A DNA stretch of 64,000 nt from Candidatus Poribacteria bacterium (GCA_965205015.1 OZ242029.1:4928001-4992000), one strand, 5' to 3'. Counted from the stretch's first letter, positions 10,652-33,333 are shown. The notes: a model not told the origin generated them from the letters alone. Numbers and translations: made by a program.

Positions 10652-10677
10652 CTGCCAACGACCGGTCTTACCACTTT

Positions 10678-12113: not shown

Positions 12114-12150
12114 TTATGCAACCTTTGCTTCTTTAAATCGCGTCATTAAT
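12114..12150 (+). promoter_or_regulatory. Candidate ECF-type promoter, copy 1
   Basis: TTATGCAAC-N18-CGTCATTAAT; repeated at 16932, 27047 and 28466 with identical spacing. Confidence 0.6.
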
Positions 12151-12215
12151 AGTAACAGCAGTCTGAGAGTCGCGCGTTAAAAACGCGCATGCTTAACTCA
12201 CTTTGGAGAGACTTG

Positions 12216-15122
12216 ATGAAAAACGAAGATGCACAACTGGTTAACCGCTTCTTGACAGGTGACGAAAGTGCCTTTACCACGCTGGTAAAAAAATACCAGA
12301 AGCGCGTCCATGCACTCACATGGCGGAAGGTCGGCGATTTCCATACTGCCGAGGAACTCACACAAGACACCTTCCTCAAGGCATACCAGAAACTTGGGAC
12401 GCTGAAGAATCCGAGTCAGTTCGCTGGATGGCTCTATGTCATCGCTGATCGGCTCTGTATCGCGTGGCACCGAAGGCAGAAACCACCAATGGAATCTTTG
12501 GAAACAACGAGTGGAGAGGAGGTCGAGGCATCGTCTTACCGGCACTACGAAGATGAACAACGTGAAGCAGCTTCTGTTGAACATCGTTATGGACGCATTA
12601 GAGACCTCTTAGAAAAACTCCCCGAGAGCGAACGGACAGTTGTGACACTCCACTACCTCGGAGAAATGACGTGTAAAGCGATTGGTGAGTTTTTAGGTGT
12701 CTCTCCGAACACAGTTAAGAGTCGTCTCCAGCGTGCACGAAACCGTTTAAAGGAGCAAGAAACCATGATTCAGGAAACGCTTGGGGGTGTACATTTACCT
12801 ACCTCCTTCACCGATCACATTATGAAGCAAGTCGGTAACATAAAACCGGCATCTCCGACGCACAGCAAACCGTTTCTGCCGTGGGCAATCTCTGCCGCAA
12901 CAACCGTCTTTATCTTTCTAATAATGGGTGCGGGATCTCAATACCTTTCTCACTTCCAGAAGCCGTATAACCTGAACGCCCCATCGGAAACCACCGTTGA
13001 AATTATTGATGCCCCTATTGTCTTGGATACACAAGCAAAACCGGATTTACGGAACCAATCTGGACGTTTCGATACCACCGGTAAGAGCAGCAGTGCCGGT
13101 CCACAAGTCTCGGAACCTGTTATGCTTGCCGCTGCACAGGTAGAAAAGGAGCCGCGCCCGTCAACAAAACAGCAATGGATACAGGTAAGCGGTCCAAAAG
13201 AAGAAGCCTCCGTATCCGACTTATTGGTCAGTTCTTGGGGAGATGTCTATGCGGTTTCAAAAATTGGTATCTACAGATTAGCATCAGATGCCCCCACATG
13301 GACGCTCGTCAGTCCACTGCCACCAGAGACTTCTGTAGACAATCACGGTATACGGATGGCAGAACGAAAGGACACCCTCTATCTCGTCTTTCCTAACGGT
13401 GTGTTCGCTTCAAAAGACAGAGGTGAAACATGGACAAAACTGGGTGGGCGCCCAGAGGGACGCGCCATTGGATTGGTGATAACGGATGAAGCCTGGTATC
13501 TCACGCTTCGAGACGATGAAGGTATCTTCCGATCTACAGATGAAGGGAAGCAGTGGACCTCACTCGACAATGAAATAGCAGACAGCGGTGTTAATGCAAT
13601 AGCTGCCGTTGAAAACACAGTGTTTGTTGGGACAAATCAGGGGCTCTACCGCTTGCGTCCAGAGATGTCGGAGAAACTGACAATAGATACCACGAAAGCC
13701 ATCCGCTCTTTGTCAGTCTCCGGAAATAATCTCTATGTCGGGACAGGACTCGATCTAACGCAATTGGAAACCGAGGAAGGAAGGAAGGCACACTTTGAGA
13801 AACTTATAGAGGAATTTACGAGTAACGCCAATGCCCGGCAATGGGAGATTTTCCGCTCAACCGATTTGGGCGAGTCGTGGACAGATATAACACCGACCAG
13901 CACATCTCACATGATGAGAGCTGCATCGAGTACTAAAGTCGTGTCAACCGGAAATGCTGTTCTGGCATTAGGTATGATAAACTTCCACTCAACCGATAGG
14001 GGAAAAACATGGACAGAATTTGGCTTCAATAGCGACGAAATGATGTTGGATATATTTCCTGCTGTCGCAGTGGACGAAAATACCATCTTCAAAACCGGAC
14101 CCTCTGAACTTAAACGCTCAACCGATGGCGGCGAATCGTGGCATCTGTTTACAGATGGAATCGTAGGCACCAACGTATTCAACTTAGTTGGATTCAAAAA
14201 TGAACTTTATACGCCTGCCTCCAAAGGTGTTGCCAAATCCAGCGATGGCGGCGAGTCGTGGAACAAACTCACCGTGAGTTCTGGTGATCTCACACTAAAA
14301 CCAGTAGAGAAAGACACCTCTCTGATTTCCCCAAAATTCACAATTGCTGACGGTGTGCTTTATGTAGTCTCATTCTCTTTAGTCCCCGAGCATCAAATGC
14401 GTATTTTCCGTCTCTCTGCGAACGGAAACGTGTTAGTCCCTATCCAAGGAATACCTGCCCTTGAAGGTGCTCCTTCCACCAAGGATATAAAAGATTGGGC
14501 AGATAAATTGTTCCGATTCGATATATTTCCCGGAGCGTTCGCAGTCAGCGGTGAGACCTTCTATGCGGAATACACGCGGCAGCTGCTCCGGTGGAAACGT
14601 GGTGAATCAAAATGGTTTAATACCGGATTGGTAGATACAGACAGCGCAGATAAAAGCGATGATTCTATGAGGGGTTTCAAACTTGCTGTTTCAGAAGAGA
14701 CCGTCTATGTTGGAAAACGCGATGGACATCTCTTTCAATCGCTTGATAGTGGCAACACATGGAAAGATTTAACCCCAAACCTCCCACTCCGTTTTGAGCG
14801 TTTCAATGGGATAACCTTCGCGGGTTCAACGGTCTATGTTGCGACTGACGCAGGTGTCTTGACCTCAGAAGACGGTGAACATTGGCGCGCACTCACCGAT
14901 ACGGCAGGAACGCATCCCCTCATTGATCGAATGGCAGTGGATATCACAACAGTTTACGGTGTTGGGGATGAAGGTATCTATCGACTGAACAATCGCGATG
15001 AATGGGAAAAGATCTCTCCAGAAGTGCCCGATAGCGTCACCGCTTTCGTGATCAATAATGATCAATTCTATATCGTAACCGAACATCGCGGGATGTTCCA
15101 CGTCTCTCTCGAAAAAGAATAA
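12216..15122 (+). CDS. ECF sigma factor fused to a TM helix and an Asp-box/BNR beta-propeller (copy 1)
   Basis: sigma2 'AEELTQDTFLKAY...FAGWLYVIA', sigma4 'LPESERTVVTLHY...IGEFLGVSPNTVKSRLQRARNRL', hydrophobic 'LPWAISAATTVFIFLIMGAG', several SxDxGxxW Asp-boxes; RBS GGAGA. Confidence 0.9.
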   Translation: MKNEDAQLVNRFLTGDESAFTTLVKKYQKRVHALTWRKVGDFHTAEELTQDTFLKAYQKLGTLKNPSQFAGWLYVIADRLCIAWHRRQKPPMESLETTSGEEVEASSYRHYEDEQREAASVEHRYGRIRDLLEKLPESERTVVTLHYLGEMTCKAIGEFLGVSPNTVKSRLQRARNRLKEQETMIQETLGGVHLPTSFTDHIMKQVGNIKPASPTHSKPFLPWAISAATTVFIFLIMGAGSQYLSHFQKPYNLNAPSETTVEIIDAPIVLDTQAKPDLRNQSGRFDTTGKSSSAGPQVSEPVMLAAAQVEKEPRPSTKQQWIQVSGPKEEASVSDLLVSSWGDVYAVSKIGIYRLASDAPTWTLVSPLPPETSVDNHGIRMAERKDTLYLVFPNGVFASKDRGETWTKLGGRPEGRAIGLVITDEAWYLTLRDDEGIFRSTDEGKQWTSLDNEIADSGVNAIAAVENTVFVGTNQGLYRLRPEMSEKLTIDTTKAIRSLSVSGNNLYVGTGLDLTQLETEEGRKAHFEKLIEEFTSNANARQWEIFRSTDLGESWTDITPTSTSHMMRAASSTKVVSTGNAVLALGMINFHSTDRGKTWTEFGFNSDEMMLDIFPAVAVDENTIFKTGPSELKRSTDGGESWHLFTDGIVGTNVFNLVGFKNELYTPASKGVAKSSDGGESWNKLTVSSGDLTLKPVEKDTSLISPKFTIADGVLYVVSFSLVPEHQMRIFRLSANGNVLVPIQGIPALEGAPSTKDIKDWADKLFRFDIFPGAFAVSGETFYAEYTRQLLRWKRGESKWFNTGLVDTDSADKSDDSMRGFKLAVSEETVYVGKRDGHLFQSLDSGNTWKDLTPNLPLRFERFNGITFAGSTVYVATDAGVLTSEDGEHWRALTDTAGTHPLIDRMAVDITTVYGVGDEGIYRLNNRDEWEKISPEVPDSVTAFVINNDQFYIVTEHRGMFHVSLEKE

Positions 15123-15158
15123 TAGACATTTGCGCAACGATTCTCTCTACGTGTCTCC

Positions 15159-15202
15159 AATAGAGTGGTGATTTTACCCATAGCATCACCACTCTATTTT
15201 TA
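15159..15202 (+). terminator. Probable intrinsic terminator
   Basis: AATAGAGTGGTGAT / ATCACCACTCTATT stem followed by a T-run, right after ECF copy 1. Confidence 0.6.
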
Positions 15203-15348
15203 TTCTAAAGGAACTTATCGCTAAACCCAACCTAAAAAGGGAGTTGATAACCCGCACGATTCTGTAGCGTATCTTGTTAGGGTGCGCACAATCTTTTGAA
15301 CAGACTCACAAACTATACTACAAAAATGGCAACTTGTGTTATATTATA

Positions 15349-16757
15349 CTAAAGTTTGGACAATATTGTAAGTTTCAAGCTGCTTTGTCGAAAGGTAGCG
15401 TGGTATCGTGTTCAGATATGGGATGAATATTCTGTGAGTTGGTCTCTTCTTGGGAACTCGCAGAATATTCCAACGCTCTGAGGTGCGACTGTAAATAAGC
15501 GACCCGTAACCCTTGGGTCAAGTGCTTCGGATGATACCAATGAATCCCGAGATGCTCGCAGACCTCTTTGACGCTCACGCGATCCGAGGGATACCGAGAC
15601 CCAAACTTCAAGAAGACCAACTTCGTCAGAGACGCTGCGACGAAACTCAGCTGCACGAAGCGATTGATGCTTTTGCGAGACTTGACCCGATAGGCATCAA
15701 ATCCGAAATGCTGCTTGACATCTCGAAACGCTGTTTCTATCTGCCACCTCTGCCGGTAGTATTCAACGATCTTCGGGAGCTCCAAGGTCATATCTGTTGT
15801 AAAGACACAGAAATACCGATACGGTTTTGAGGGTTTGACTCGGGTGCGTATCACGACGAGTCGGACGTCTGTCGGACACATTTTCGTCCGAACGACCTCT
15901 GAGGCGACCTGATACGTTTTTTCCAGGATGCAAACGTCTTGATACCGTAAGCGTTGGATGTTCAAACGGTCTCCATATTTCTTCGGACGCCCGCGCTGGG
16001 GGCGCTTCGGACGTTTCGGTAAACGATAAAACACCGCATTTGACTTCGCACGACACAACAGATGATGTCCGAGTTCCAAGAGCATTTCAAAGACTTTTCG
16101 GCGGCAGAACCCTCTATCAAAGAGGATCAACCCCCGGGGGAGCTTTGAACAGATACGTTTCAACACCGCATCACCTTTGTCCCGGAGCGTCTGAGGTGCA
16201 ATGAGTTTCACCCAGACCGGAAACAGCAACCAATCTGCCGCTGTCTCGCAGAGTAAACCTAATGCCCCAAACTCGTGTCCGAAGTGAAACTTTGATTGAT
16301 TCACGCGATGTTTACCGTGATAACTGAAGTTGCGGAAAAAATGTAAACCCCATTGGGTTTTACCCGTCTTCAAGGCTTTGGTGGCATCATAGACGTAAAC
16401 CCAGTCGGCAAACACGCCCTGGAGCCTTTTCATCAGGCACGCAGCAACCGCATCGGTATCCCATTTGCCCCGGGAAAGAAACTTCGGAAACGACCAATAG
16501 CGTGTCGCGGATCCACTCGACTGATACAGGTGCGTCAGGCTGCCTCCAGGCGGTTGAGTCATAAACCCAAAAATAAATGCTTGAAAAAGCGCAAAGTTTT
16601 GGGAGTTGAACAAATGACGAAAATCCGATACAATACTTTCTAAGTGGAGAAGCAGGGGCATTTTTGCCTTCCTTTCAAAACAGTGGTATGTTTATGAAAG
16701 GATACCTGCTTTTCTGCTTTCAAACATCTTAATTCTTTAAAATTGTCCAAACTTTAG
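15349..16757 (-). mobile_element. Intact insertion sequence, IS4 superfamily (IS701/ISH3-like)
   Basis: Perfect 16-bp terminal IR CTAAAGTTTGGACAAT / ATTGTCCAAACTTTAG, flanked by a 9-bp direct repeat TATATTATA (15340-15348 and 16758-16766). Confidence 0.92.
15375..16661 (-). CDS. DDE transposase
   Basis: 'YVYDAT', 'LILFDRGF', and YREK-like 'YRQRWQIETAFRDVKQHFG'. Confidence 0.92.
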   Translation of the reverse strand: MPLLLHLESIVSDFRHLFNSQNFALFQAFIFGFMTQPPGGSLTHLYQSSGSATRYWSFPKFLSRGKWDTDAVAACLMKRLQGVFADWVYVYDATKALKTGKTQWGLHFFRNFSYHGKHRVNQSKFHFGHEFGALGLLCETAADWLLFPVWVKLIAPQTLRDKGDAVLKRICSKLPRGLILFDRGFCRRKVFEMLLELGHHLLCRAKSNAVFYRLPKRPKRPQRGRPKKYGDRLNIQRLRYQDVCILEKTYQVASEVVRTKMCPTDVRLVVIRTRVKPSKPYRYFCVFTTDMTLELPKIVEYYRQRWQIETAFRDVKQHFGFDAYRVKSRKSINRFVQLSFVAASLTKLVFLKFGSRYPSDRVSVKEVCEHLGIHWYHPKHLTQGLRVAYLQSHLRALEYSASSQEETNSQNIHPISEHDTTLPFDKAA

Positions 16758-16762
16758 TATAT

Positions 16763-16881
16763 TATAGTAAAACCCGTAATTACTTATACACTAACACAAG
16801 GGCGAGGATGCAATCCTCGCCAGCGGTGGCGGGGTGTTTGTTCCCTGACGAACTGTAAACATATTTTTGGATTTTACTATA
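16763..16881. mobile_element. MITE-like element with TATAGTAAAA ends
   Basis: TATAGTAAAACCC ... GGATTTTACTATA (12/13 IR); internal palindrome GGCGAGGATGCAATCCTCGCC. Confidence 0.6.
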
Positions 16882-16931
16882 AAAAAATACTTCAGCGTAG
16901 CCGTGATATAATTTCTCCAATTTTTTTCTCG

Positions 16932-16968
16932 TTATGCACCATTCTGTTCTTTAAATCTCGTCATTAAT
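16932..16968 (+). promoter_or_regulatory. Candidate ECF-type promoter, copy 2
   Basis: TTATGCACC-N18-CGTCATTAAT, followed by a leader similar to that of copy 1. Confidence 0.6.
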
Positions 16969-17032
16969 TAGTGACAGCAGTCGGATAGTCGCGCGTTAAA
17001 AACGCGCACTCTTAAGTTACTGGAGAGACTTG

Positions 17033-19978
17033 ATGAAAAACGAAGATGCACAATTGGTCAACCAATTTCTGACAGGCGACGAGAACGCCTTCACCGCACT
17101 CGTAAAAAAATATCAGAAAAGCGTCCACGCCCTCACATGGCGGAAGGTTGGCGATTTTCATACCGCTGAGGAACTCACACAGGACACCTTCCTGAAAGCA
17201 TATCAGAAACTCGCGACGTTAAAGAATCCGAATCAGTTCGCGGGATGGCTCTATGTGATCGCCGATCGGCTCTGTATCGACTGGCATCGAAAGCAGAAAC
17301 CACCCATGGGATCCTTGGAAACCACCAGCGGAGAGGAGATTGAAGAATCTTCCTACCGTCACTACGAAGACGAACAACGTGAGGCAGCCTCCGTCGAACA
17401 TCTTCAAGAACACGTCAAAAGTCTTTTAGAGAAACTGCCGGAGAGCGAACGCACAGTTGTGACACTTCACTATCTTGGAGAAATGACCTATAAAGCGATC
17501 AGTGAATTTTTAGGCGTATCCCCAAACACGGTTAAAAGCCGCCTCCAACGCGCACGGAACCGTTTAAGACAGGAAGATGATAGGGTGCGCGACACCCTTA
17601 GTAGTGTAGATCTGCCCATAACTTTCACCGAAAATATTGTAAAACAAATCGCTGACATAAAACCTGTAGCCCCTACGAACAGTAAACCCTTAATACCTTG
17701 GGCGATCTCTACCGCAACAGCCATCTTTATTTTTTTAATAATGGGTGTAGGGTCGCAATATCTCTCCCGTTTCCAGAAACCGTATAACCTGAACGCTCGA
17801 TCGGAAACCATCGTTGAAATCATCGACACCCCCATTGTCCTTGACAGAGAAGAAAAACCGGACTTGCGGAACCAAGCCGGTCACCTCGATACCACCGGTA
17901 AAAGTAAAGGTGCCGGTCCACAAATTTCAGAACCTGTTGTGCTTGCCGCTGCTCAAGTAGAAAAGGAGACGCACCCGTCAACAAAACAGCAGTGGACACA
18001 AGCAAACGGTCCCGAAGGCGGAACAGTATCAGGATTACTTCTCAGCTCGACAGGTGATATCTACACCGTTTCCGCGAGCGGTATCTATAGATTCACACCA
18101 AATGCGTCTGTATGGGCACTTGTGAGTCCATTGCCGCCAGAGGCTTCCGAAGACTACAGCTGGAAACCGATGGCAGAACGAAACGGCACCCTCTACCTTG
18201 TATCGACTGATAAAGTGTGGGTCTCAACCGATAGCGGCGAAACATGGGAGTCGCTGGGTCCGCGTCCAAAAGGAAACCCTATCGGACTCGCCATCACGGC
18301 TCAAGGCTTATATCTCGCCCTTGAAAATCAGATTTTCCGATCCGAAAACGCAGGTAAACAGTGGATTCCGATGGACGATGGGATAATCAACGAAAACACT
18401 CACATTCTCACACTGACTGCTATCGAAAACACCGTGTTTGTAGGCATGAACCATGGACTCTACCGTTCGCGATCAGGGATGTGGGAAAAATTGCCGGTGG
18501 ATACCACCAAAGCCATCCATTCCTTGGCGGTTTATGAAAACGACCTCTATGTCGGGACAGGTCCCGATATTTCTCAATTAAACACTCCCGAAGGTGCTGG
18601 GGCGTTCATCGGTCAAGTTATGAGCAGTGACACCCGAAGTTCATGGGAGCTCTTCCACTCGGTCGACTTGGGCGATACGTGGACGGAACTAACACCGAAA
18701 ATCACTTCGTTCACAATGAAAATATCACCGGGTGCTAAAGTCCTGGTGAGTGGAGAGACAGTGTTAGTCTTAGGCGTCACGACGTTCCGCTCAACGGATG
18801 GTGGAAAAACATGGACGGACTTTGGATTTGACACATCCGATATGAATACGGCACTGAATTCAGTGACACTCAGTATGTTTCCAGCAGCGACAGTGGGCAA
18901 AAATACATTTCTCAAAGTTGGAATGCACGACGGACTCATCCGTTCAACCGATGGGGGTCAGTCGTGGTACCCATTCACGAAAGGGATGGTAGGTACCAAA
19001 GTGTTTGACCTGGTAGCATTCAAAAATGCGCTCTACGCAAATACCGGCTCAGGTATCGCCAAATCCGCTGATAACGGGAAGTCCTGGAAAACTCTTGCTG
19101 TGAATTCCGCAGAACTTGTGTTAGAACCGTCAGACCTAACTATACCTACGGATATCCTGATTTCCGCAAAATTAGCGATCTCTGACGGTGTGCTTTACGG
19201 CATCTCAGCAGCCTTCGACACACAAAACGAAGTTCGCCTTTTTCGTCTCTCCGCGAGCGGCGACGTGTTAGTACCTATCCAGGGACCTGCTACCTTCGGT
19301 GGAAATCTCTCCATAATAGCCATGATGGGTCTGGCAGATGCCACTCGGCAACTCGAAAGGTTCTCTGCAGAGTTCGCAGTGAGCGGCGAGACATTTTATA
19401 CAGAATATAAGAGACGGCTTTTCCGCTGGAAACGCGGTGAACCAGAATGGTTCAACACCGGATTGATAGATAAAACCCCGCTCTCTGATAATTATAACGA
19501 TGCTGTGAAAGAGCGTCAGAAAAGTATCGCACTTGCTGTTTCAACGGAAACCGTCTATGTCGGAAAACGTGATGGACATCTCTTTCAATCGTTTGATAGT
19601 GGCAACACATGGAAGGACCTGACTTCAAATCTGCCGCTGCGCTTCACGTACTTTAAAGAGATCGTCTTTGCGGGTCCAACAGTGTATGTCGCTACAGACA
19701 CGGGTGTCTTGACTTCAGAAACAGGTGAACACTGGCGAGCGATCACCGATAAAACCGGGAGCCATACCGTTATAGATCGAATTGCTGTGTCCGGTACCTC
19801 GGTTTACGGTGCTGGGAATGAAGGTGCCTATCAATTGAACCGTCGCGGTGAATGGAAAAAAATCTCGCCAGAAGTGCCAGGTCGGGTTATTTCTCTCGTT
19901 ATTAACGACGATACACTTTACGCTGTGACGGAAAAACGCGGGATGTTTCAGGTCTCGCTTGAAGAAGAAAACTATTGA
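17033..19978 (+). CDS. ECF sigma factor fused to a TM helix and an Asp-box beta-propeller (copy 2)
   Basis: Same architecture as 12216; sigma domain nearly identical, central propeller diverged. Confidence 0.9.
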   Translation: MKNEDAQLVNQFLTGDENAFTALVKKYQKSVHALTWRKVGDFHTAEELTQDTFLKAYQKLATLKNPNQFAGWLYVIADRLCIDWHRKQKPPMGSLETTSGEEIEESSYRHYEDEQREAASVEHLQEHVKSLLEKLPESERTVVTLHYLGEMTYKAISEFLGVSPNTVKSRLQRARNRLRQEDDRVRDTLSSVDLPITFTENIVKQIADIKPVAPTNSKPLIPWAISTATAIFIFLIMGVGSQYLSRFQKPYNLNARSETIVEIIDTPIVLDREEKPDLRNQAGHLDTTGKSKGAGPQISEPVVLAAAQVEKETHPSTKQQWTQANGPEGGTVSGLLLSSTGDIYTVSASGIYRFTPNASVWALVSPLPPEASEDYSWKPMAERNGTLYLVSTDKVWVSTDSGETWESLGPRPKGNPIGLAITAQGLYLALENQIFRSENAGKQWIPMDDGIINENTHILTLTAIENTVFVGMNHGLYRSRSGMWEKLPVDTTKAIHSLAVYENDLYVGTGPDISQLNTPEGAGAFIGQVMSSDTRSSWELFHSVDLGDTWTELTPKITSFTMKISPGAKVLVSGETVLVLGVTTFRSTDGGKTWTDFGFDTSDMNTALNSVTLSMFPAATVGKNTFLKVGMHDGLIRSTDGGQSWYPFTKGMVGTKVFDLVAFKNALYANTGSGIAKSADNGKSWKTLAVNSAELVLEPSDLTIPTDILISAKLAISDGVLYGISAAFDTQNEVRLFRLSASGDVLVPIQGPATFGGNLSIIAMMGLADATRQLERFSAEFAVSGETFYTEYKRRLFRWKRGEPEWFNTGLIDKTPLSDNYNDAVKERQKSIALAVSTETVYVGKRDGHLFQSFDSGNTWKDLTSNLPLRFTYFKEIVFAGPTVYVATDTGVLTSETGEHWRAITDKTGSHTVIDRIAVSGTSVYGAGNEGAYQLNRRGEWKKISPEVPGRVISLVINDDTLYAVTEKRGMFQVSLEEENY

Positions 19979-19990
19979 TGTTATAGATTT

Positions 19991-20267
19991 AAGGCTACGG
20001 GCACCCACAAGGGGTGCCCCTACGGCTGGTGTCGGTTCAGGATATGGGCACCTACAAGGCTACGGGCACCCACAAGGGGTGCCCCTACGGCTGGTGTCGG
20101 TTTAGGATACGGGCACCTACAAGGCTACGGGCACCCACAAGGGGTGCCCCTACGGCTGGTGTCGGTTCAGGATATGGGCACCTACAAGGCTACGGGCACC
20201 CACAAGGGGTGCCCCTACGGTTGGTGTCGGTTTAGGATACGGGCACCCACAAGGGGTGCCCCTACGG
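19991..20267. repeat. Tandem array of a 65-bp REP-containing unit (BIME-like)
   Basis: Units start at 19991, 20056, 20121 and 20186; five GGGCACCCACAAGGGGTGCCCCTAC palindromes. Confidence 0.9.
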
Positions 20268-20314
20268 GATGTAAACTTATTTTTGTAATTCATCATATTT
20301 TTGGAGGAATCAAA

Positions 20315-22309: not shown

Positions 22310-22324
22310 TTTCAGAATCCTATT

Positions 22325-22354: not shown

Positions 22355-22396
22355 GGCATCAAACGTCTATCACCGATAACACGAAAAGGACAAACA

Positions 22397-23188
22397 ATGC
22401 AGCATTCTCTACGTTTCACAGTTTTTATACTTTTCGCGATTGCTGTTCAATTGTTGGGCTGCTCAGAAGACCCCGACACTGACACGACGCCTGTCGAAAA
22501 ACTTGTTGCCGAACCTATACCCCCTAAACCTACACCCGAAGACACGTTCACGAAACTAAAGATGTTGTTTCCAAAACCCATTTTTGATGGAGATTTCACA
22601 AGACTCGATGAGGTGACAACTTCTAAAACCTATTTGGACTTTGTTACCCAAGAATATAGAACAAAGAAACCATTTAAAACGTTGGCAGAGTACCTCGAGG
22701 TAGCCAAACCTGACCCGGAAAGATATAAACCCTTTTTGAAGGAATCTATCGGGAAATCCAAGGAAGAAGACATAGCCATTATTCATCAGCTAACTTTAGA
22801 TTACCGCTGTGCAAACGTAATACTGTATCAGATGATACACGGCGGTGAAGACAATATCAAAGATGGCCTCAATGCGATATTTGCTGTGCTGGAAAAAAAA
22901 TTATCAATCCTTGATGAAGCACCTGTAAAGGCTTGGATAGAAATACATCTACCAAATCCAGACCAAGCAAAAGAATTCTTCACTGCCCTTGAACATTTCG
23001 TAACTGAAACCGAAAGGAAGGACGCGCTTTTCATACAGGAACAGTTTGAGCAACACGGCAAAGATGATGGGCTTTTATGGCTCGCCGTGCACAACCCTGC
23101 GCTAACCGCAGAAATTCTCAATAATTTCACGAATACTAATGTGTTTCTGAGATGGACTGAAGGCATTTTTTTTCAACAAAATCCATAG
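22397..23188 (+). CDS. Hypothetical lipoprotein
   Basis: Signal peptide with lipobox 'LLGC'; helical; paralogous to 26145. Confidence 0.75.
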   Translation: MQHSLRFTVFILFAIAVQLLGCSEDPDTDTTPVEKLVAEPIPPKPTPEDTFTKLKMLFPKPIFDGDFTRLDEVTTSKTYLDFVTQEYRTKKPFKTLAEYLEVAKPDPERYKPFLKESIGKSKEEDIAIIHQLTLDYRCANVILYQMIHGGEDNIKDGLNAIFAVLEKKLSILDEAPVKAWIEIHLPNPDQAKEFFTALEHFVTETERKDALFIQEQFEQHGKDDGLLWLAVHNPALTAEILNNFTNTNVFLRWTEGIFFQQNP

Positions 23189-23361
23189 GAAAAACATATT
23201 CCGTTTCACTATTGCAGCCGAGCCGTTGTTGGAATTAAAGATTCCTCACAGGTTTGGCTGTTCTTGTTTTGCTGATAAACTGGATTTCTGGGTCAACTGG
23301 AACATCTAATTGAGCGTTACAGTCTGCAATTCAAGTTCCAAGTAGAGGGAAAAAATTTTTC

Positions 23362-26061: not shown

Positions 26062-26144
26062 TATGCTTACTTAAAAGGTGGCAATCCATCCCCAAAGATG
26101 CTATGATGCCGTTATAATATTCAAGAATAAAGGGGAGACCCCAG

Positions 26145-26951
26145 ATGAAAAAACCGGTCGTTCTGATTCTTATCGGTATCGGCGTTGCACTTCTCGTTGT
26201 CGGGATCGTCTTTGTCGTTCCGTGGTTCGGTAAAATGATGGACGAAATGGAACAGTTAGCCGATAAGCACGTGCAACACAGGCAGGCTTTAAGAATGTCT
26301 GCACGCGAACCGTTGACGGATGAACAGGAAAACCTTTTGTCCCAACTTCTCAAAATCACACAGGCACCAGATGCGGGGCAAAAAAACGATTTTGACGGTA
26401 TCCTGTCAAGCGAACCCTATCTAACATATCTAAAGGCGCGGGAAGGGGAAGACTACGCAGATTTTCGAGCATACGTCGAGGCAATGCCGACAGAAAACAT
26501 GAAAACCATTGCGCTCTCCCGAATCAAAGCCACACTCGGAACGGATAAAAGCGATGAAGAATTAGACGTATGGACGGATTACTATTTCATCGTCCGAGCG
26601 TGGGGAATCACCGTTGAAGATCCGCGGGACAATCTGAAAGAACTCAATGAACTCCATCAAACATACCTCATAGAGCCGCTAATGAACAGCGGTTCAGACA
26701 TATCCGACCTGCATACCCAAATCGTCCAAATCGGTATGTCCTCTATATTCATGACAGAGGAAAATAACGTGTTCAAAGAGGCGTGGCGTGAACGCTTAGA
26801 AAGATATGGCGAACAAGAAGGACTCCTCCGATGCGCGATTGCGGCTCCAGGTGAATTCGCGCTCATGTGCTCGTTTTTTCCAGACTTCGCAACCTTCCAC
26901 GAATGGATACTCACACGTCCAGAACCTGAATCCGAAGAATCAGAACAATAG
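26145..26951 (+). CDS. Hypothetical N-terminally membrane-anchored protein
   Basis: N-terminal TM helix, RBS GGGAGA; C-terminus similar to 22397. Confidence 0.75.
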   Translation: MKKPVVLILIGIGVALLVVGIVFVVPWFGKMMDEMEQLADKHVQHRQALRMSAREPLTDEQENLLSQLLKITQAPDAGQKNDFDGILSSEPYLTYLKAREGEDYADFRAYVEAMPTENMKTIALSRIKATLGTDKSDEELDVWTDYYFIVRAWGITVEDPRDNLKELNELHQTYLIEPLMNSGSDISDLHTQIVQIGMSSIFMTEENNVFKEAWRERLERYGEQEGLLRCAIAAPGEFALMCSFFPDFATFHEWILTRPEPESEESEQ

Positions 26952-27046
26952 TATCCACCACAACACCGGCACCCGAGATGTGAGGGTTCTTTCCAATTTC
27001 AAACAATTTTGCCATCTTTTCGATAAAAATCCAGATTTTTTTCGCT

Positions 27047-27083
27047 TTATGCACCCTTTTCGGCGCGAACCTGTATCATTAAT
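27047..27083 (+). promoter_or_regulatory. Candidate ECF-type promoter, copy 3
   Basis: TTATGCACC-N17-GTATCATTAAT, with the same box-to-box distance as copies 1 and 2. Confidence 0.55.
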
Positions 27084-27276
27084 TATAAAAGGGGCATATA
27101 TCACCTCACGGAAAAATGAACGGTAGCGTTTCTGAAATTTTTCCGCCCCGATATTTGATGTCAATGATAGCCGAATTGTCGGCAACGTTTAAAACGCGTC
27201 ATTAGGATATAGACGCAGATTATCAAAGGTTAAACTTTAAACACGAGGCGACATAACGTCTCTGGGGGAAAAAAAA

Positions 27277-28299
27277 ATGAAAAGCATTTTTCACGGTAGA
27301 AAAACTCTCGCAAGGCTTTCACTCTTCGCAACTTTAGGACTCGCCATTCTTTGGGGTGTCTCTCTCTATTTATCTGCACACGGTCATGAAATTGGAGCGT
27401 CGAATATGCAGTTACGTGAACACATTGAACTCGACTCCAACGCACCGTTCGCGAATAAAAAGTATACCGGTCCCCAAAACGCGCAGGAATTGATGAAAGC
27501 GTTAGATGCAGATTACGATAAGAGCCTGGCAAAGACCAGTGTGAGTGTATCCGGTAAGTTCACAGGGGCAAAAACTGTGACTTATAGTAGTGATCTCACA
27601 ATACGTGAGATAGATGCAAGGTATCCACGGGCGGAATGGCTTCAGCTCCTTTTGGAGAAGGGCATCACTATAGATGATTCCCTCGAGTATGCGTCCTTGT
27701 TGTCAAAGCGTTACACTCTGGCACTCTTGGAAGACAATCCAGATTTGCGGCAGTCAGGATTCCTCGGTATTCCAGCAACGGATGATTGGGAAACCTATAA
27801 AGTCGCTTACATCGATAAGTTGGTAAACGATCACACCAAGATCCAAGAAGCCGTAGAACAGGTTGAACGCAGTAAGAAGGTAATTGAGGGTGCGAAAACG
27901 CAGATTCAACAGATTCAAGCGCACACTAAACTCGCCATTGGATGTGGCACAGCACACCTTGAACGTGCCATGACTCAACTCGAGCGTAGCACAGCACACC
28001 TTGAACATGCGAAACCACAGATTGAACAGAGTCAAGCGCATGCTAAACTCGCCATCGAATGCAGTAAGGCGGTAGTTGAAGATGCCAAGACACAGATTCA
28101 ACATAGCAAAGCGCAAATTGAACGCGCTATGACTCAACTCGAACATAGCATAACTCAACTTGAACGTGCAAAAAAAGAGTTGAGTTCACAACAACTCGGA
28201 CACATCCAGAAGCAGATTGAGCATATACAACGGACTTTAGTCCCACCCAAAAAACCGGCACCTGCGCAGGAATCGATTCCTCCGCAGGGGTCAAACTAA
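27277..28299 (+). CDS. Exported hypothetical protein with C-terminal heptad/coiled-coil repeats
   Basis: Signal/TM N-terminus; repeated 'ERAMTQLE', 'QAHxKLAIxC', 'AKTQIQ'. Confidence 0.75.
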   Translation: MKSIFHGRKTLARLSLFATLGLAILWGVSLYLSAHGHEIGASNMQLREHIELDSNAPFANKKYTGPQNAQELMKALDADYDKSLAKTSVSVSGKFTGAKTVTYSSDLTIREIDARYPRAEWLQLLLEKGITIDDSLEYASLLSKRYTLALLEDNPDLRQSGFLGIPATDDWETYKVAYIDKLVNDHTKIQEAVEQVERSKKVIEGAKTQIQQIQAHTKLAIGCGTAHLERAMTQLERSTAHLEHAKPQIEQSQAHAKLAIECSKAVVEDAKTQIQHSKAQIERAMTQLEHSITQLERAKKELSSQQLGHIQKQIEHIQRTLVPPKKPAPAQESIPPQGSN

Positions 28300-28465
28300 A
28301 ATTTCTGTTCTGTGGATATTGCGAGGCTTACGCACTGTCCGTTTCTCTGGATGCCGTCTAAGCAAACAACAGAGGCACGGTATTCGCGTAAGCTTTGCTT
28401 AAAAACGCCTTAGATTTCTGGTAGCATAGATGTGGCGTCGATCAATTTTCTATTATTTTTTAAGG

Positions 28466-28502
28466 TTATGCACCCTTTCCGTTTGAAAAAAGTATCTTTA
28501 AT
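28466..28502 (+). promoter_or_regulatory. Candidate ECF-type promoter, copy 4
   Basis: TTATGCACC-N17-GTATCTTTAAT upstream of the 28580-29335 unit. Confidence 0.55.
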
Positions 28503-28579
28503 TATAAAATAGCTTGAGCAACGTAGAACGGTATTTCAAATCGGCGTGTTATCAATAACACGAAAAAAGGAACGACATC

Positions 28580-29302
28580 ATGAAAATTTTAAGCATTGGA
28601 TTGGGCGTATTTATCCTAACTTGTTCTGCTTGGGCAGGAACATTTGTGGAGACCTTCAATGACAACGGAAATCTCGAAAAGTGGCAGGAGCTGATCAGAT
28701 TCGGTTTAGATGCGCCCGGTCCTTGGCATATTGTTGATGGCGAACTTCAGTATATCCTGGACTTTGATGATGGCGGCTTGACTCGTTTACTTACGACTGG
28801 GGATGAAATGTGGCAAGATTACAGCATCGAATTTGATGTTAAACCCCTTAGAAAACACGGGGAGGGAAACATTGCGATTGCCGCGCGAATTAATCAGACA
28901 TGGGGAGTCGTATGCACGATTGGCGACCTACCCTTCCCCGAACCTGAATCAATGGCGACCTGTTATGGCGGCAATTTGCAAGGGCATGCTTTTCTAAACT
29001 TTGCACAGGAACGTCATCGCTCGTTGAAACCGTCGAGATGGCATCATCTGAAGTTGAGCGTTAAGGGAAATCTCTTGACTTTCTGGATTAATGAAAAGCA
29101 AGTTCTCGGACCGATAGTTTTGAAAGCTATAGGCAATTTTCCTGACTACCCTAATGGTAAAGTCGGTTTCGGGGTCTCGAATTATTCGGTACTCTTTGAT
29201 AATATTACCATTACTGGTGCCGATATTCCACATCAGCGTGGGTTATCCGTAACACCGAGCGCAAAACTTGCGACCACCTGGGGACACTTGAAGCAGCTTT
29301 AG
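28580..29302 (+). CDS. Secreted ConA-like / DUF1080-like protein with C-terminal KLAxTW motif
   Basis: Signal peptide, 'WHIVDGEL', 'WQDYSIEFDVK', 'WHHLKLSVKG', 'GKVGFG...FDNITIT'; ends 'LSVTPSAKLATTWGHLKQL'. Confidence 0.75.
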   Translation: MKILSIGLGVFILTCSAWAGTFVETFNDNGNLEKWQELIRFGLDAPGPWHIVDGELQYILDFDDGGLTRLLTTGDEMWQDYSIEFDVKPLRKHGEGNIAIAARINQTWGVVCTIGDLPFPEPESMATCYGGNLQGHAFLNFAQERHRSLKPSRWHHLKLSVKGNLLTFWINEKQVLGPIVLKAIGNFPDYPNGKVGFGVSNYSVLFDNITITGADIPHQRGLSVTPSAKLATTWGHLKQL

Positions 29303-29334
29303 AGCAGTGGAAATACATTGAATGGAGGATTCTG

Positions 29335-32322
29335 ATGGAAAGAGAAAACGATGTTCAATTGATTCGTAGAATCTTGTCCGGTGACGACGCGGCATTTAAT
29401 ACCTTAGTCCGAAAGCACCAAAAGGGTATTCACGCGCTTGCATGGCGAAAAGTTGGCGATTTTCACATCGCCGAAGAGATTGTACAAGACACGTTCCTCC
29501 AGGTATACAAGCACCTCGCGCAACTCAAGAATCCGAATCAGTTTTCCGGATGGATGTATGTCATCGCCAGTCGACTTTGCCTGAAATGGCTTCAAAAGCA
29601 GAAGAAAAAATCTGCGATGCAATCGTTGGAGGACACACCTGTGGAAGAAATCGAAGAATCCTCTTACACACATTATGTATCGGAACAACGGCTAACAGAG
29701 AGCACCGAGCGTCGTCAGGAACTCGTCAAAAAACTTCTGGCACAGCTACCCGAGAGTGAGCGCACAGTCGTAACACTTCACTTCCTCGGAGAGATGACGG
29801 CAAAGGAAATTGGAAAACTCTTAGGTGTGTCGGTGAATACGATTAAGAGTCGCCTTCGCCGGGGACGGAAACGTTTACAGGAACAACGAGAGGAACTCCT
29901 GGTGAGCGAAACACTCGGGAGCATCCCATTCCCTGCCCACGTGACCGAGCGTATCATGGAACAGGTGGCTAACATGCAGCCGACACCGGCTCCGGTTGGA
30001 AAGCCATTGGTCCCGTGGATGGCTTTCGGGACGGCTGTGGCTTTCGTTATTTTCATGCTCGGCATGAGTAATCAGTATCTTGCCAGATTTCAGAAACCGT
30101 ACAGTTTTGAGGCGGAATCCGAACCCACGATTGAAATTGTCGATGCTCCTATTGTCCTTGATATCGTATCAAAGCCATCTATACGCAACCAGTTTGGACA
30201 GGCTACCACTCCGGGTAAACGCAGCAGTGCTGGTATCCAGGTTTCTGAAGCAGTTTTGAGATCCAGTGCGTTGGAGGATTCTCTTGTGTTTGGGACTTCC
30301 TCGCAATGGACACAGGGAAATGCCCCGTCAGGGGGGCGTATACAGGATATGTTCGCGACCTCTGACGGAACTGTCTATGCTGTTGCACCCACAGGAATAT
30401 ACAGATCAGAGACAGACGCAACTGCATGGACGCGGGTCAACGCAAGCGTTCCTATTGGCAACGCTCGAATGCCGATGGCAGCGCATAATGGAAACCTTTA
30501 TATCGCCTCTGTGGATGAAATACTTACTTCAGTTGATCGTGGTGAGACATGGCATACGCTGGGTCCCCGACCAAAGGGACCCACAGTTGGACTCATCATT
30601 ACAGACGCCCCCCAAGATGCCGATTCACAAGTAGATATCACGATGTATCTGGCACTTAGAGATGAAGGGGTTTTCCGATCCACAAATGGGGGAATACAAT
30701 GGCATCCGTTTAACGATGGATTGACGGGCGAAATAATATCCACAATGGCTGCTGTTGGAGAGACGATATTTATCGGGACAGGGCGCGGTCTCTATCGTCT
30801 CGATTCAGGTATGTGGAAAAAGTTGCCCGTGGAAACATCAAGAGCCGTCTATTCCTTGACAGTATCCGAGAATAATCTCTATGTTGGAACCGGTCCCGAT
30901 CTGTTGGGATTCACGCCAATAAAAACAGGACAAGTGGTGCCAAAAGCCGAGTCGCATGTACTTAAGCTTTTCCATTCGGCTGACCTGGGAGCGTCGTGGA
31001 CTGACATAACACCGAGTTATAAATCTGATAATCACGGGATACCCTCTGGCATAACAGTTTTGGCTGCCGGTGAAACGCTTTTCGCGTCAAGTGTCAAGCA
31101 CGAATACCGTTCAACAGATGGTGGACACACCTGGACAGAACTGTCAGGAGACACGAATATGGTCATGATCAATAGTCTTCCAGCTGTGGCGGCGAACGAG
31201 AGGACATTTTACAAAACGGGTCCATACGGCATTTTTCGGACCACGGATGGCGGTAAGTCATGGGGTCTATTTGTAGATGGGATGGCAGGTACACGCCTAA
31301 AGGATATGGTTGTCCTCAACGACAGATTCTACGCGCATACAGGTTATGAGGTTTATCAATCAACCGACGAAGGAGTGTCTTGGAAAAAACTTGTGATTGA
31401 CGGGAGCTTTTCGGCGGAGTCTACTGCGTTTGAATGGTCAGAAAAAGATAAGAACAAGGCGCGCGTCCATATCTTTTTTTATTCAAAACTGATAGTGGAT
31501 GGCAACCGTCTTTATTTTCTTACACGTGAAGATAGCAAATTGAAAATTTTCCGCTTATCTACAGATGGCAATACACTCAGTCCGGTTCAAGGCATACCTG
31601 ACTTCAATGATAAAGAATTAGCCCCCGAATTGTGGATAAGTGGCAAGATGATAAAGCCAACGAACGCACCCGATAGCTCCAAAAAAGACAATGCGTCACT
31701 CACCACACGTTTTGTTCCTGGAGGTGTGGCAGTCAAAACGGTTGCAGTCAGTAATGATGTGTTCTACGTGGAATACAAAGGCAGTCTTTTCAAATGGAGA
31801 CTTGGAGATCCAGAGTGGATAAATACGGGATTGATAGATACGGATCACATGTCCGATGGTGATTCCAGAAAGGGACTTCAGATAGCGGTTTCGGGAGAAA
31901 CTGTCTATGTAGGTAAGCGAGATGGTAAGTTGTTTCAGTCCCTTGATGGCGGGAACAGTTGGAGAGAAATCACACCAAACCTGCCGCTTGGCTTTACCTG
32001 CTTCAATGAGATAGCCTTTGCAGCAACGACCGTCTATGTGTCAACAGATGCTGGCGTCTTGAGTTCACAAACCGGCGAACACTGGCGCGTGCTCACCAAT
32101 AGCGTGAGAGCACACACTATTATAGATAGATTTGCAGTAGAAGGCACGAAAGTTTATGGTATCGGCGATGCAGGCATCTATCATTTGGACGCTCGTCGTC
32201 AATGGAAACGGGTTGCTTCAGATGTGCCAGATGAAATCAATGCGCTCGCTATTGCTAACAATAAGCTCTATAGTGCTACCGAAGATCGGGGGATATTGCA
32301 CATCTCACTTGACGAAGAATAG
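29335..32322 (+). CDS. ECF sigma factor fused to a TM helix and an Asp-box beta-propeller (copy 3)
   Basis: sigma2 'AEEIVQDTFLQVY', sigma4 'IGKLLGVSVNTIKSRLRRGRKRL', TM 'LVPWMAFGTAVAFVIFMLGM', Asp-boxes; RBS GGAGG. Confidence 0.9.
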   Translation: MERENDVQLIRRILSGDDAAFNTLVRKHQKGIHALAWRKVGDFHIAEEIVQDTFLQVYKHLAQLKNPNQFSGWMYVIASRLCLKWLQKQKKKSAMQSLEDTPVEEIEESSYTHYVSEQRLTESTERRQELVKKLLAQLPESERTVVTLHFLGEMTAKEIGKLLGVSVNTIKSRLRRGRKRLQEQREELLVSETLGSIPFPAHVTERIMEQVANMQPTPAPVGKPLVPWMAFGTAVAFVIFMLGMSNQYLARFQKPYSFEAESEPTIEIVDAPIVLDIVSKPSIRNQFGQATTPGKRSSAGIQVSEAVLRSSALEDSLVFGTSSQWTQGNAPSGGRIQDMFATSDGTVYAVAPTGIYRSETDATAWTRVNASVPIGNARMPMAAHNGNLYIASVDEILTSVDRGETWHTLGPRPKGPTVGLIITDAPQDADSQVDITMYLALRDEGVFRSTNGGIQWHPFNDGLTGEIISTMAAVGETIFIGTGRGLYRLDSGMWKKLPVETSRAVYSLTVSENNLYVGTGPDLLGFTPIKTGQVVPKAESHVLKLFHSADLGASWTDITPSYKSDNHGIPSGITVLAAGETLFASSVKHEYRSTDGGHTWTELSGDTNMVMINSLPAVAANERTFYKTGPYGIFRTTDGGKSWGLFVDGMAGTRLKDMVVLNDRFYAHTGYEVYQSTDEGVSWKKLVIDGSFSAESTAFEWSEKDKNKARVHIFFYSKLIVDGNRLYFLTREDSKLKIFRLSTDGNTLSPVQGIPDFNDKELAPELWISGKMIKPTNAPDSSKKDNASLTTRFVPGGVAVKTVAVSNDVFYVEYKGSLFKWRLGDPEWINTGLIDTDHMSDGDSRKGLQIAVSGETVYVGKRDGKLFQSLDGGNSWREITPNLPLGFTCFNEIAFAATTVYVSTDAGVLSSQTGEHWRVLTNSVRAHTIIDRFAVEGTKVYGIGDAGIYHLDARRQWKRVASDVPDEINALAIANNKLYSATEDRGILHISLDEE

Positions 32323-32379
32323 TAGTGTTCCGAAGGAACAATAGCTTTTCACAAGTATATTTAGAATCAGTTATGTCCT

Positions 32380-32615
32380 TTGCTTGATAAGAAACAAGTC
32401 GTGATTATGGATAATGCGTCCTTCCACAAGGGATCAAAGACGGCGCGGTTGGTTGCGGAAGCAGGTGCGAGTTTGTTATTTTTAGCACCGTATTTTCCGG
32501 AGTTGAACCCGATTGAGAAAGACTTCGCTAACATTCATCGACAGTATCAATACAACCCCGGAACATCTATTGAGCAAATCATAAAAGTGTATAACTAATC
32601 ATCGGCTTTACTATA
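32380..32615 (+). pseudogene. IS630-family transposase remnant (C-terminal part and right end)
   Basis: 'VVIMDNASFHK', 'LLFLAPYFPELNPIEK'. N-terminal part missing; followed by TTTACTATA. Confidence 0.85.
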
Positions 32616-32634
32616 ATACGGCTAAAGGAGTAAC

Positions 32635-33333
32635 ATGATGAAATCTTTGCTGATTGGATTGGGCATTTTTCTCTTTACTTTCTCTGGTTGGACAGGAACA
32701 TTTGTGGAGACCTTCGATGACAACGGAGATATTGAAAAGTGGCAAGAATTGATTATTCCTGGTGCAGAGCCGGGTTCTTGGAAGATTATTGATGGCGAAC
32801 TTCATGCAACAAGTCCTGAGGGTTTCACTCGTTTCCTTGTGACCGGGGATGAAAGGTGGCAAGATTACGTCATTGAAGTTGATGTTAAGCCGCTCGAAAA
32901 ACACGGGCTTGGAAATATCGCGATTGCCGCGCGGGTTAAGGGAACTTGGGCGGTAGGCGGTGCAATTGGCGATCTACCTTTCCCTGTACCTGTACCAATC
33001 GCGACTTGTTTTGTCGGAGATTTTGAGCGTAAGAAATTTAATATCCTCGGCTTTGGAGCCAGTCCATTATTAGAATTAGAGCAGTGGTCTACTCTGAAGT
33101 TGAGGGTTGATGGAAATACCTTTACCTTCTGGCTAAATAATGAGCAAATTCTGGAAACCGTAAATGAGGAAGCTGACTTACTCACAGGGGGAGTAGGTTT
33201 AGGTCTGGCTAATTATACAGCGCGCTTTGATAATATGGTAATTACTGGCAACGGTATCCCAAACAAGGGTAAATTATCAGTAGCACCTCAGGCGAAACTC
33301 GCTACGACGTGGGGACAGTTGAAGCGGTTTTAG
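32635..33333 (+). CDS. Secreted ConA-like / DUF1080-like protein, paralog of 28580
   Basis: Shares 'GTFVETF', 'DVKPL.KHG.GNIAIAAR', 'IGDLPFP'; ends 'LSVAPQAKLATTWGQLKRF'. Confidence 0.8.
   Translation: MMKSLLIGLGIFLFTFSGWTGTFVETFDDNGDIEKWQELIIPGAEPGSWKIIDGELHATSPEGFTRFLVTGDERWQDYVIEVDVKPLEKHGLGNIAIAARVKGTWAVGGAIGDLPFPVPVPIATCFVGDFERKKFNILGFGASPLLELEQWSTLKLRVDGNTFTFWLNNEQILETVNEEADLLTGGVGLGLANYTARFDNMVITGNGIPNKGKLSVAPQAKLATTWGQLKRF

Follow-up and report, generated by a model that had tools for sequence, protein, structure and literature searches.

How can a sigma factor of the extracytoplasmic function (ECF) type be held in check and released if no separate anti-sigma factor accompanies it? 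This question is raised by a stretch of 64 kb of DNA (here called the window) from Candidatus Poribacteria, a sponge-associated bacterium, where the region of interest at 12.1-33.3 kb encodes three large paralogs that each combine an ECF sigma factor, one membrane helix and an outer domain in a single chain. Fusions of a sigma factor with its own transmembrane sensor are so far represented by a single characterised case, next to a small number of predicted groups. We propose, with a probability of roughly 0.6, that the three proteins are members of a family, spread across Poribacteria, of ECF sigma factors that are tethered to the membrane by a single pass, are freed upon a signal at the ectodomain and feed back on their own promoters.

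Paralog 1 (12216-15122, + strand, 968 aa), paralog 2 (17033-19978, + strand, 981 aa) and paralog 3 (29335-32322, + strand, 995 aa) share one architecture, with paralogs 2 and 3 being 64% and 48% identical to paralog 1. For the latter, the start at 12216 was preferred over 12189, as it agrees with the alignment of the paralogs and with a ribosome site, GGAGAG. Its chain comprises sigma2-sigma4 (residues 1-185), a conserved helix (~196-208), the membrane helix (residues ~220-240, nt ~12873-12935, + strand), a conserved outer juxtamembrane motif, here termed the stalk (residues 241-285, nt 12936-13070, + strand), and an ectodomain modelled as a GH74-like double propeller (residues 321-968). In all three paralogs Pfam recognises Sigma70_r2 and Sigma70_r4_2 within residues ~24-190, and TIGR02937, the NCBIfam model of the ECF superfamily, scores 98-105 bits with a cut-off of 42.9. 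Only the sigma2 and sigma4 regions are present, without sigma3 or sigma1.1, as defined for ECF (group 4) sigma factors, and the nearest solved relative of the sigma part in a profile search is SigW (E 1.6e-32). A cysteine in sigma2 (C81) is conserved; at the corresponding sigma4 position, the three paralogs have C, Y and A.

Each paralog contains exactly one 19-residue window with a Kyte-Doolittle mean above 1.6 (residues ~218-240). The C-terminal ~650 aa carry six to seven Asp-boxes (SxDxGxxW) per paralog and match Sortilin-Vps10, BNR and PSII_BNR in Pfam. No further paralog copy was found in the 64-kb window, and none of the 17 window open reading frames (ORFs) scanned belongs to an anti-sigma family of Pfam or NCBIfam. 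A preliminary description of this DNA had reported three paralogs with sigma2, sigma4, one hydrophobic helix and an Asp-box part of ~650 aa, and had recognised no separate anti-sigma gene; Pfam, TIGR02937 and the Kyte-Doolittle profile agree with it. Its idea that the sigma factor is tethered by its own sensor gains support from the one-component layout with a single helix and an outer domain, from the recurrence of this layout and from purifying selection, both detailed below.

The search with the whole-length protein scored 8000 candidates, of which 6105 matched at E up to 1e-3. The best 120 of these have the same domains at 883-985 aa, and four of the five named rows among these 120 are Candidatus Poribacteria. 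In species-representative genomes, at least 605 stretches were matched and 565 confirmed, showing that the architecture recurs in at least 565 places. From this genome scan 76 loci were kept, 74 from Poribacteria and two from 'uncultured bacterium', which represent 47 assemblies by a hand count of accession prefixes. ORF calling and BLAST identified 136 ORFs in these loci that match the first 300 residues, 121 of them aligning over at least 240 of these residues with 50-83% identity. Up to five tethered sigma genes are found per locus, arranged in tandem arrays. Head-to-tail arrays of three to five such genes are present in L049:9989-18670, L012:3-13006 and L067; the gap between array genes is as small as ~20 nt in L049, and a promoter copy of its own precedes only part of the array members.

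Sigma2-sigma4, the short helix, the membrane helix and the outer juxtamembrane motif together make up a constant module of ~285 N-terminal residues, which is followed by a variable spacer and then the ectodomain. In an alignment of 118 N-termini, conservation extends from the sigma domains through the short helix (LPxNLTENIMRxV) and the membrane helix to the stalk (QYLxRFQKPYSFxAxSExTVEIIDAPIVLD...KPDVRNQxG) and collapses past residue ~300. Identity to the consensus is 0.74 and 0.66 in the stalk versus 0.69-0.86 in the sigma domains, and the stalk is present in all ectodomain classes. A hydrophobic 19-mer (Kyte-Doolittle value of at least 1.78) is located at residues 218-225 in all 118 N-modules, 117 of which have one hydrophobic segment, and there is a weak positive-inside bias around the membrane helix (2.06 versus 1.55 K+R). 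On sequence grounds, the ectodomain must lie outside the cytoplasm. The ratio of nonsynonymous to synonymous substitution rates (dN/dS) among orthologs is 0.02-0.15 for the juxtamembrane piece, 0.06-0.13 for sigma and 0.18-0.34 for the ectodomain; thus, purifying selection acts throughout, being as tight on the stalk as on sigma.

A query consisting only of linker, membrane helix and stalk (116 aa) found 243 representatives in 1.84 billion proteins, 198 of them at E up to 1e-10. The piece also found 516 clusters at 90% identity out of 580 candidates comparable in length, and all organisms named there are Candidatus Poribacteria. In the best 150 of the 243 representatives, the piece is preceded by a full sigma in 99 cases, by a partial one in 24 and by none in 27.

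Behind the module, the ectodomains vary widely. Among the 121 ORFs, 73 are of the BNR type and 48 of other types. Pfam searches with 30 of these 48 identified WD40 (14, double propellers), Kelch (five, propellers), LRR (four, three with GHL15), Reg_prop (one) and Peptidase_M16_C (one), and nothing beyond sigma in the remaining five. Of the best 150 representatives, 121 have at least 100 residues past the module and were classed by BLAST against a labelled set: 48 BNR, 37 WD40, 10 LRR, two M16_C, two of a 592-aa type without Pfam match, one each of Kelch, Reg_prop and a 440-aa type without Pfam match, and 19 unassigned. For 13 of the 19, Pfam searches added redoxin/AhpC, transglutaminase core, Big_5, Laminin_G_3, trypsin plus TPR, CarboxypepD_reg and C-type lectin.

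Modelled at full length from an alignment of 57 rows (mean predicted local distance difference test (pLDDT) 75), paralog 1 shows confident sigma helices and a confident all-beta ectodomain, with residues 214-317 below 50. The best PDB matches of the ectodomain model in Foldseek are GH74 xyloglucanases (E ~1e-19, target template modelling (TM) score 0.58-0.61, 14-16% identity), and a sequence profile also reaches the same GH74 entries (E 1e-20 for 2cn2). As in GH74, the ectodomain is modelled as two tandem seven-bladed propellers, where the preliminary description had named one Asp-box propeller. In a model of the N-module (117 rows), the sigma domains reach a pLDDT of ~90 and residues 181-210 one of 84-90. 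The sigma part is compact and fits best to CnrH as bound to CnrY (TM score 0.70, root-mean-square deviation (rmsd) 4.9) and to SigW as bound to RsiW (0.65), with an rmsd of ~27 to holoenzyme-bound ECF sigma factors. Such a compact model would be compatible with a short built-in clamp. A complex prediction of sigma (1-185) with residues 186-245 scored 0.01 (mark 0.32) and counts neither way on the clamp.

Reading of the intergenic DNA revealed a common motif 5´ of paralog 1, paralog 2, a coiled-coil gene and DUF1080a, which is located directly 5´ of paralog 3. Patterns written from these four sites are circular and no test, and were replaced by a position weight matrix (PWM) trained on external loci only, with 52 sites (45 unique) 5´ of 51 of the 136 family ORFs. 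Its consensus is TTATGCAcCCtTTc..C..ctAAATcGCGTCAtTAAt and is informative also at positions left free by the seed pattern; the consensus family promoter reads TTATGCAMC-N18-CGTC or GTATC, then ATTAAT. On both strands of the window the PWM detects exactly four sites (33.4-44.3 bits; maximum in 20 shuffles 7.2). These candidate ECF-type promoters are all on the + strand and belong to paralog 1 (12109-12154, TTATGCAAC-N18-CGTC-ATTAAT, 44.3 bits), paralog 2 (16927-16972, 41.9 bits), the coiled-coil gene (27042-27087, 33.4 bits) and DUF1080a-paralog 3 (28461-28506, 38.1 bits). The -10 region is CGTC for paralogs 1 and 2, and GTATC for the coiled-coil gene and DUF1080a-paralog 3. Since the family promoter precedes the sigma genes themselves (paralog 3 via DUF1080a) and is of the AAC...CGT type that marks autoregulated ECF (group 4) genes, we predict from the sequence that they are autoregulated.

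In the 76 loci, 117 sites of at least 15 bits were found, 70 of them before family ORFs (69 of the 136), a number that is partly circular since 52 are PWM training sites, 38 before other ORFs and nine before none. The 38 other ORFs encode Laminin_G_3 (ConA-like, five), WD40 (five), PD40 (four), ABC-2 permease (three) and Kelch (two) proteins, one each of DUF1080, MacB/FtsX, Reg_prop, M16_C, Trypsin_2, TPR, DUF3352 and DUF3108-like, and 11 proteins without credible family. Most of the 20 inspected have a signal-peptide-like N-terminus. The promoter of the coiled-coil gene has its counterpart in L001, where the same site is located 5´ of an ABC-2 permease gene. The promoter subtype tracks the ectodomain class loosely, with WD40-type genes having mostly TGCAAC and CGCGTC, and BNR-type genes mostly TGCACC with CGCGTC, GTGTC or GTATC.

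Four promoter-bearing stand-alone genes, encoding Kelch (L014:8885-9958 and L042:6360-7448), M16_C (L063:8636-9976) and WD40 (L015:8811-9827) proteins, are located directly 5´ of a tethered sigma gene with the same ectodomain repeat type; the N-terminus is signal-peptide-like in those of L014, L042 and L063 and not in that of L015. In addition, the 5´ leaders of paralog 1 (12172-12188) and paralog 2 (16991-17007) contain an identical 17-nt hairpin, GCGCG-TTAAAAA-CGCGC, ~26 nt 5´ of the start codon, and variants with one or two changes occupy the same place in L001, L002 and L004.

In the mechanism that we propose, the sigma factor would be made inactive and held at the membrane, and perhaps clamped, too, by its own helix behind sigma4. 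A signal at the ectodomain would allow an initial cut within the conserved stalk or close to it, after which a site-2 intramembrane protease would release the sigma factor; proteolytic release is argued here from the precedent of IutY of Pseudomonas putida. For the BNR type, the signal would most likely be a glycan or another matrix ligand, a glycan being the best guess because of the GH74-like fold and the ConA-like neighbours. The free sigma factor would then drive its own promoter, resulting in positive feedback, and, in the window, the coiled-coil gene together with the operon of DUF1080a and paralog 3. Two genes downstream of paralog 2, for a 263-aa lipoprotein and a TonB-like protein, could possibly be reached by read-through from the sigma gene.

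Several observations weigh against this scheme. The membrane helix and stalk have a pLDDT below 50 in the N-module model, which therefore lends no structural support to a cleavage or docking site, and the compact sigma counts for little, since lone ECF sigma factors often come out compact in AlphaFold. No anti-sigma domain was found in residues 185-320 of the three paralogs with Pfam at E up to 10, the ZAS motif (HxxxCxxC) is present in none of the 118 N-modules, and only ~35-40 residues separate sigma4 from the membrane. The 64-kb window contains no gene for a site-2 protease or a Prc-type protease. The promoters are near-identical and the paralogs share the -10 recognition loop KNPxQF, so that cross-talk is predicted, a poor fit with many separate sensors; furthermore, the count of promoters before sigma genes carries the circularity described above. 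Ectodomains resembling enzymes (redoxin, trypsin, transglutaminase) fit a sensor less well, and cleavage, protease partner and ligand are inferred.

Membrane-bound one-component regulators such as ToxR and CadC are well established, and the sigma factor might likewise be active while tethered, recruiting RNA polymerase uncut while the ectodomain acts via conformation or oligomerisation. This would agree with the missing anti-sigma domain, with the lack of a conserved protease gene nearby in the 76 loci and with the short, conserved cytoplasmic linker. However, binding of the core polymerase takes both sigma domains, for which a tether of ~35 residues leaves little room, and the conserved outer stalk would be left without an obvious role. 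IutY, moreover, requires cleavage by Prc and RseP, and its truncated forms are constitutively active, according to the relevant passages of PMC5411451. We consider activity in the tethered state unlikely.

Another possibility stays closer to proteolytic release: the ectodomain itself might be a useful exported protein, the loss, unfolding or degradation of which exposes the stalk, frees the sigma factor and re-induces the gene together with soluble paralogs. Promoters located 5´ of the sigma genes themselves would suit such self-monitoring, as would the enzyme-like ectodomains in the family and the promoter-bearing neighbours, which are often exported stand-alone proteins matching the adjacent ectodomain type (L014, L042, L063, L015). 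The idea is purely inferred, however, and since all steps past the first cut coincide, it is only a variant of release upon an ectodomain signal; we regard it as improbable.

It could also be argued that the ectodomains have no sensing role and that the fusions arose incidentally, as duplicated sigma cassettes came to lie 5´ of genes for periplasmic proteins, which has been proposed for Planctomycetes (PMC7671368). Ectodomain diversity is great, the genes form tandem arrays of up to five per locus, and a FastTree phylogeny of the N-module requires 16 ectodomain-class changes, where the minimum for eight classes is seven. However, when the labels were shuffled 200 times, the mean was 39.5 changes (minimum 35); ectodomain class thus clusters strongly on the tree, which would point to few fusions and subsequent duplication with some repeated swaps. 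Orthologs, moreover, keep intact full-length frames under the ectodomain dN/dS of 0.18-0.34 given above, and the stalk is kept in all classes. Fusions without function are therefore very unlikely, whereas the fusions may well have originated by cassette insertion.

That separate genes for sigma and anti-sigma were erroneously read as a single ORF through an assembly or annotation artefact has practically no chance and is rejected for the window: although 27 of the best 150 module-bearing representatives lack sigma and several begin with 'MIREAL..NLTENIM' past the sigma4 position, the window holds three uninterrupted copies, 99 of the 150 are fused, and of 59 helix-motif matches in the 76 loci, 57 fall within residues 150-260, the one match near an ORF start (residue 18) being in an ORF cut by the locus edge. 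The sigma-less module proteins P0218, P0224, P0225, P0227, P0254, P0267 and P0317, which begin with 'MIREAL/I...' exactly past the sigma4 position, represent either genuine split forms with two genes or predictions that are truncated.

Between 12.2 and 33.3 kb, the sole - strand ORF of 100 aa or more that is not nested in a + strand gene encodes a DDE_Tnp_1 transposase (15375-16661) and is part of an insertion sequence (15340-16766, - strand) with 28-nt inverted ends (15340-15367 and 16739-16766). At the orthologous locus L002, the transposase query had no match, and the two orthologous sigma genes are ~600 nt apart. Between paralog 1 and the insertion sequence, 37 nt past the paralog 1 stop, a perfect 14-bp hairpin followed by a T run (15159-15198, + strand) looks like a terminator. 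A generic scan for sigma-70 promoters and terminators at 14.5-34 kb remained near the shuffle expectation (33 versus 24.3 and 25 versus 20.0) and was set aside. All seven non-sigma genes have a hydrophobic N-terminal segment or a lipobox, by eye and Kyte-Doolittle score. The preliminary description had placed all genes except the insertion sequence on the + strand and had considered all non-sigma products exported or anchored, with both of which these data are in line.

Downstream of paralog 2, the gene at 20144-22309 (+ strand) encodes a putative serine peptidase that resembles S55 (SpoIVB) and contains the motif GMSGSPV; it is the protease of the preliminary description. Its S55 match remains below the Pfam cut-off (17.6 versus 25 bits) and the NCBIfam SpoIVB match is weak (E 0.02; 2e-4 for the L026 homolog), and a PDB sequence search gave no matches; language-model look-alikes point in the direction of S55, with PF05580 in 37-87% of the members of the three best Atlas clusters shown (scores 0.92-0.96). 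A G+C-rich tandem repeat of a 65-nt unit (19991-20254, 4.1 copies, 95% match) is located in front of this gene. Since the listed start falls inside the repeat, the true start is probably near 20315 and the first ~50 codons of the listed ORF are probably not real. Relatives of the gene are present in only one of the 76 loci (L026), there on the opposite strand, and as a dedicated site-1 protease the protein was dropped as a conserved feature. In L001, L002 and L004, the 263-aa gene follows directly 3´ of the sigma gene without an S55-like gene between; the S55-like gene and the tandem repeat thus look like an insertion in the genome of the window.

Further downstream follow genes for a 263-aa lipoprotein-like protein without known family (22397-23188, + strand) and for a TonB-receptor-like outer-membrane protein of 899 aa (23362-26061, + strand), which starts with a signal peptide, ends in F and contains a pair of CarboxypepD_reg domains. 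The latter protein had been described earlier as a TonB receptor; of the Plug domain and 22-strand barrel of TonB-dependent receptors, it shows a sub-threshold Plug match (21.4 versus 23.9 bits), and no barrel family of Pfam was matched. A role as FecA-type signalling transducer is without support, as an N-terminal signalling domain and a family promoter are both lacking. An N-terminally anchored protein without known family (26145-26951, + strand, 268 aa) and the anchored coiled-coil protein (27277-28299, + strand, 340 aa) precede DUF1080a (28580-29302, + strand), which encodes an exported ConA-like protein (PF06439). Paralog 3 begins 32 nt past the DUF1080a stop and both are therefore likely to form one operon. 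The region ends with a DDE_3 transposase remnant, of which only the C-terminal 70 aa are left (32386-32598, + strand), and DUF1080b (32635-33333, + strand), again for an exported ConA-like protein (PF06439).

An orthologous island, flanked by a MOSC gene and two ABC transporter genes, is present in seven loci (L001, L002, L004, L005, L007, L022 and L074), and its content varies among them. Across the 76 loci (BLAST, E up to 1e-5), relatives of the 263-aa and the TonB-like gene are found in five loci each, of the 268-aa and the coiled-coil gene in four each, and of DUF1080 in eight, often in tandem and adjoining a BNR-type sigma gene. A conserved neighbourhood, which the preliminary description had made a test of its proposal, is thus found in part: the island recurs, but the S55-like gene is missing in L001, L002 and L004. 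Its suggestion that the freed sigma factor switches on this island has to be narrowed. Family promoters are located at paralogs 1 and 2, the coiled-coil gene and DUF1080a-paralog 3, but in the 64-kb window the PWM finds none 5´ of the S55-like, 263-aa, TonB-like and 268-aa genes or DUF1080b.

Outside the region of interest, the first ~4 kb of the window have a G+C content of 39% versus ~50% elsewhere and are possibly a foreign island; they contain a fused Eco57I/MmeI-like restriction-modification methylase (1116-3647, - strand) and a 375-aa ORF without family that runs off the window edge. The stretch at 4087-11442, upstream of the sigma gene island, encodes a xylose-isomerase-like TIM barrel, three GFO/IDH/MocA oxidoreductases, a PhyH dioxygenase and a member of the glucosamine-6-P isomerase/6-phosphogluconolactonase family. 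Such a sugar-oxidation gene context often accompanies DUF1080 proteins. At 39952-43511, two NHL-repeat propeller proteins on the - strand, without sigma module, adjoin a NicO-family transporter and further illustrate how rich this genome is in repeat proteins.

Many genes for eukaryote-like proteins of Poribacteria have transmembrane helices, as stated in parts of the single-cell genomics study by Kamke 2014 (PMC3909097), in the searched text of which 'sigma' has no occurrence. We tentatively suggest that many of the WD40, LRR, Kelch, BNR and lectin 'eukaryote-like' proteins, a known trait of sponge symbionts, might in Poribacteria be the outer halves of self-amplifying tethered sigma factors with one release module and one promoter type, which would read the host matrix in a Notch/SREBP-like manner, rather than adhesins or host-mimicry effectors; this extension is rather doubtful. 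If true, part of this repertoire in sponge symbiosis would have to be recast as signal receptors. The family offers a constant release module with dozens of ectodomain types, a promoter for reporter assays and hundreds of natural variants. How a sigma factor is held and released without a classical anti-sigma factor, what the stalk does and how cross-talk among near-identical promoters is avoided thereby become testable questions.

The closest known system is IutY of Pseudomonas putida (ECF243), a single polypeptide in which one membrane helix connects an N-terminal ECF sigma factor to a C-terminal domain in the periplasm. Prc shortens the periplasmic portion to ~50 residues, RseP cuts next and sigma is freed, as laid out in the sections of PMC5411451 and PMC8999054 devoted to it, the former calling IutY 'unique'. 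Sigma, single membrane helix and outer C-terminal domain are likewise combined in one chain in the Poribacteria family. IutY differs in having a FecR-type anti-sigma/periplasmic domain and in receiving its signal from the aerobactin TonB-dependent transducer; no FecR family was found in the paralogs, neither with whole proteins in Pfam nor in residues 185-320 at E up to 10. Unlike IutY, the Poribacteria family has a cytoplasmic linker of ~35-40 aa, large unrelated ectodomains and hundreds of members. It may thus work in an IutY-like manner while standing outside the IutY group. The preliminary description had named membership in an already characterised ECF group as an argument against its proposal, which applies by half: such a hybrid and its mechanism are known from IutY, yet the family lacks its defining FecR-type domains.

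Other ECF groups share single features with the family. In excerpts of PMC8999054, ECF48, ECF52 and ECF53 of Actinobacteria are described as sigma factors with a membrane-spanning extension for which proteolytic activation is proposed, SCO4117 having an outer carbohydrate-binding domain; these groups carry the ZAS anti-sigma domain, which none of the 118 Poribacteria modules shows, have one to two membrane helices and belong to a different phylum. ECF57 (ECF01-Gob) of Planctomycetes has a long C-terminal extension with membrane helices and, in some members, WD40-like propellers (PMC7826278 and PMC5766207, in part), with ~2 helices and conserved cysteines in both sigma2 and sigma4 (PMC7826278, same extract); the Poribacteria family has one helix and keeps the sigma2 cysteine, with that of sigma4 being variable. 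For ECF128 of Actinobacteria, the same extract reports +1 anti-sigma factors with BNR/Asp-box, sortilin and YCF48 domains outside one membrane helix, i.e. sigma and sensor as two genes, whereas in the window both share one chain, as they do in 57 of 59 helix-motif matches of the loci. ECF263 has five to seven membrane helices (PMC7826278, same extract). Pinto and da Fonseca proposed, in the part of PMC7671368 concerned, that duplicated sigma genes of Planctomycetes gain unrelated extensions by insertion. 'Poribacteria' has no occurrence in the searched part of the ECF classification supplement (PMC7826278), and the literature searched contained no paper linking Poribacteria with ECF sigma factors.

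On the ectodomain side, the GH74 xyloglucanases have the modelled double propeller in common with the family, a likeness at the level of the fold at 14-16% identity. The Bacteroides hybrid two-component sensors BT4663 and BT4673, periplasmic glycan sensors with double propellers according to their PDB titles, match the ectodomain model with low TM scores of 0.23-0.31. Judged by its sequences, the Poribacteria family lacks defining features of each ECF group compared here, on those features compared. Its kind, the one-component sigma/anti-sigma hybrid, is already known; new are the compact module without known anti-sigma domain, the conserved outer stalk, the breadth of ectodomains, the expansion in a single phylum and the defined promoter.

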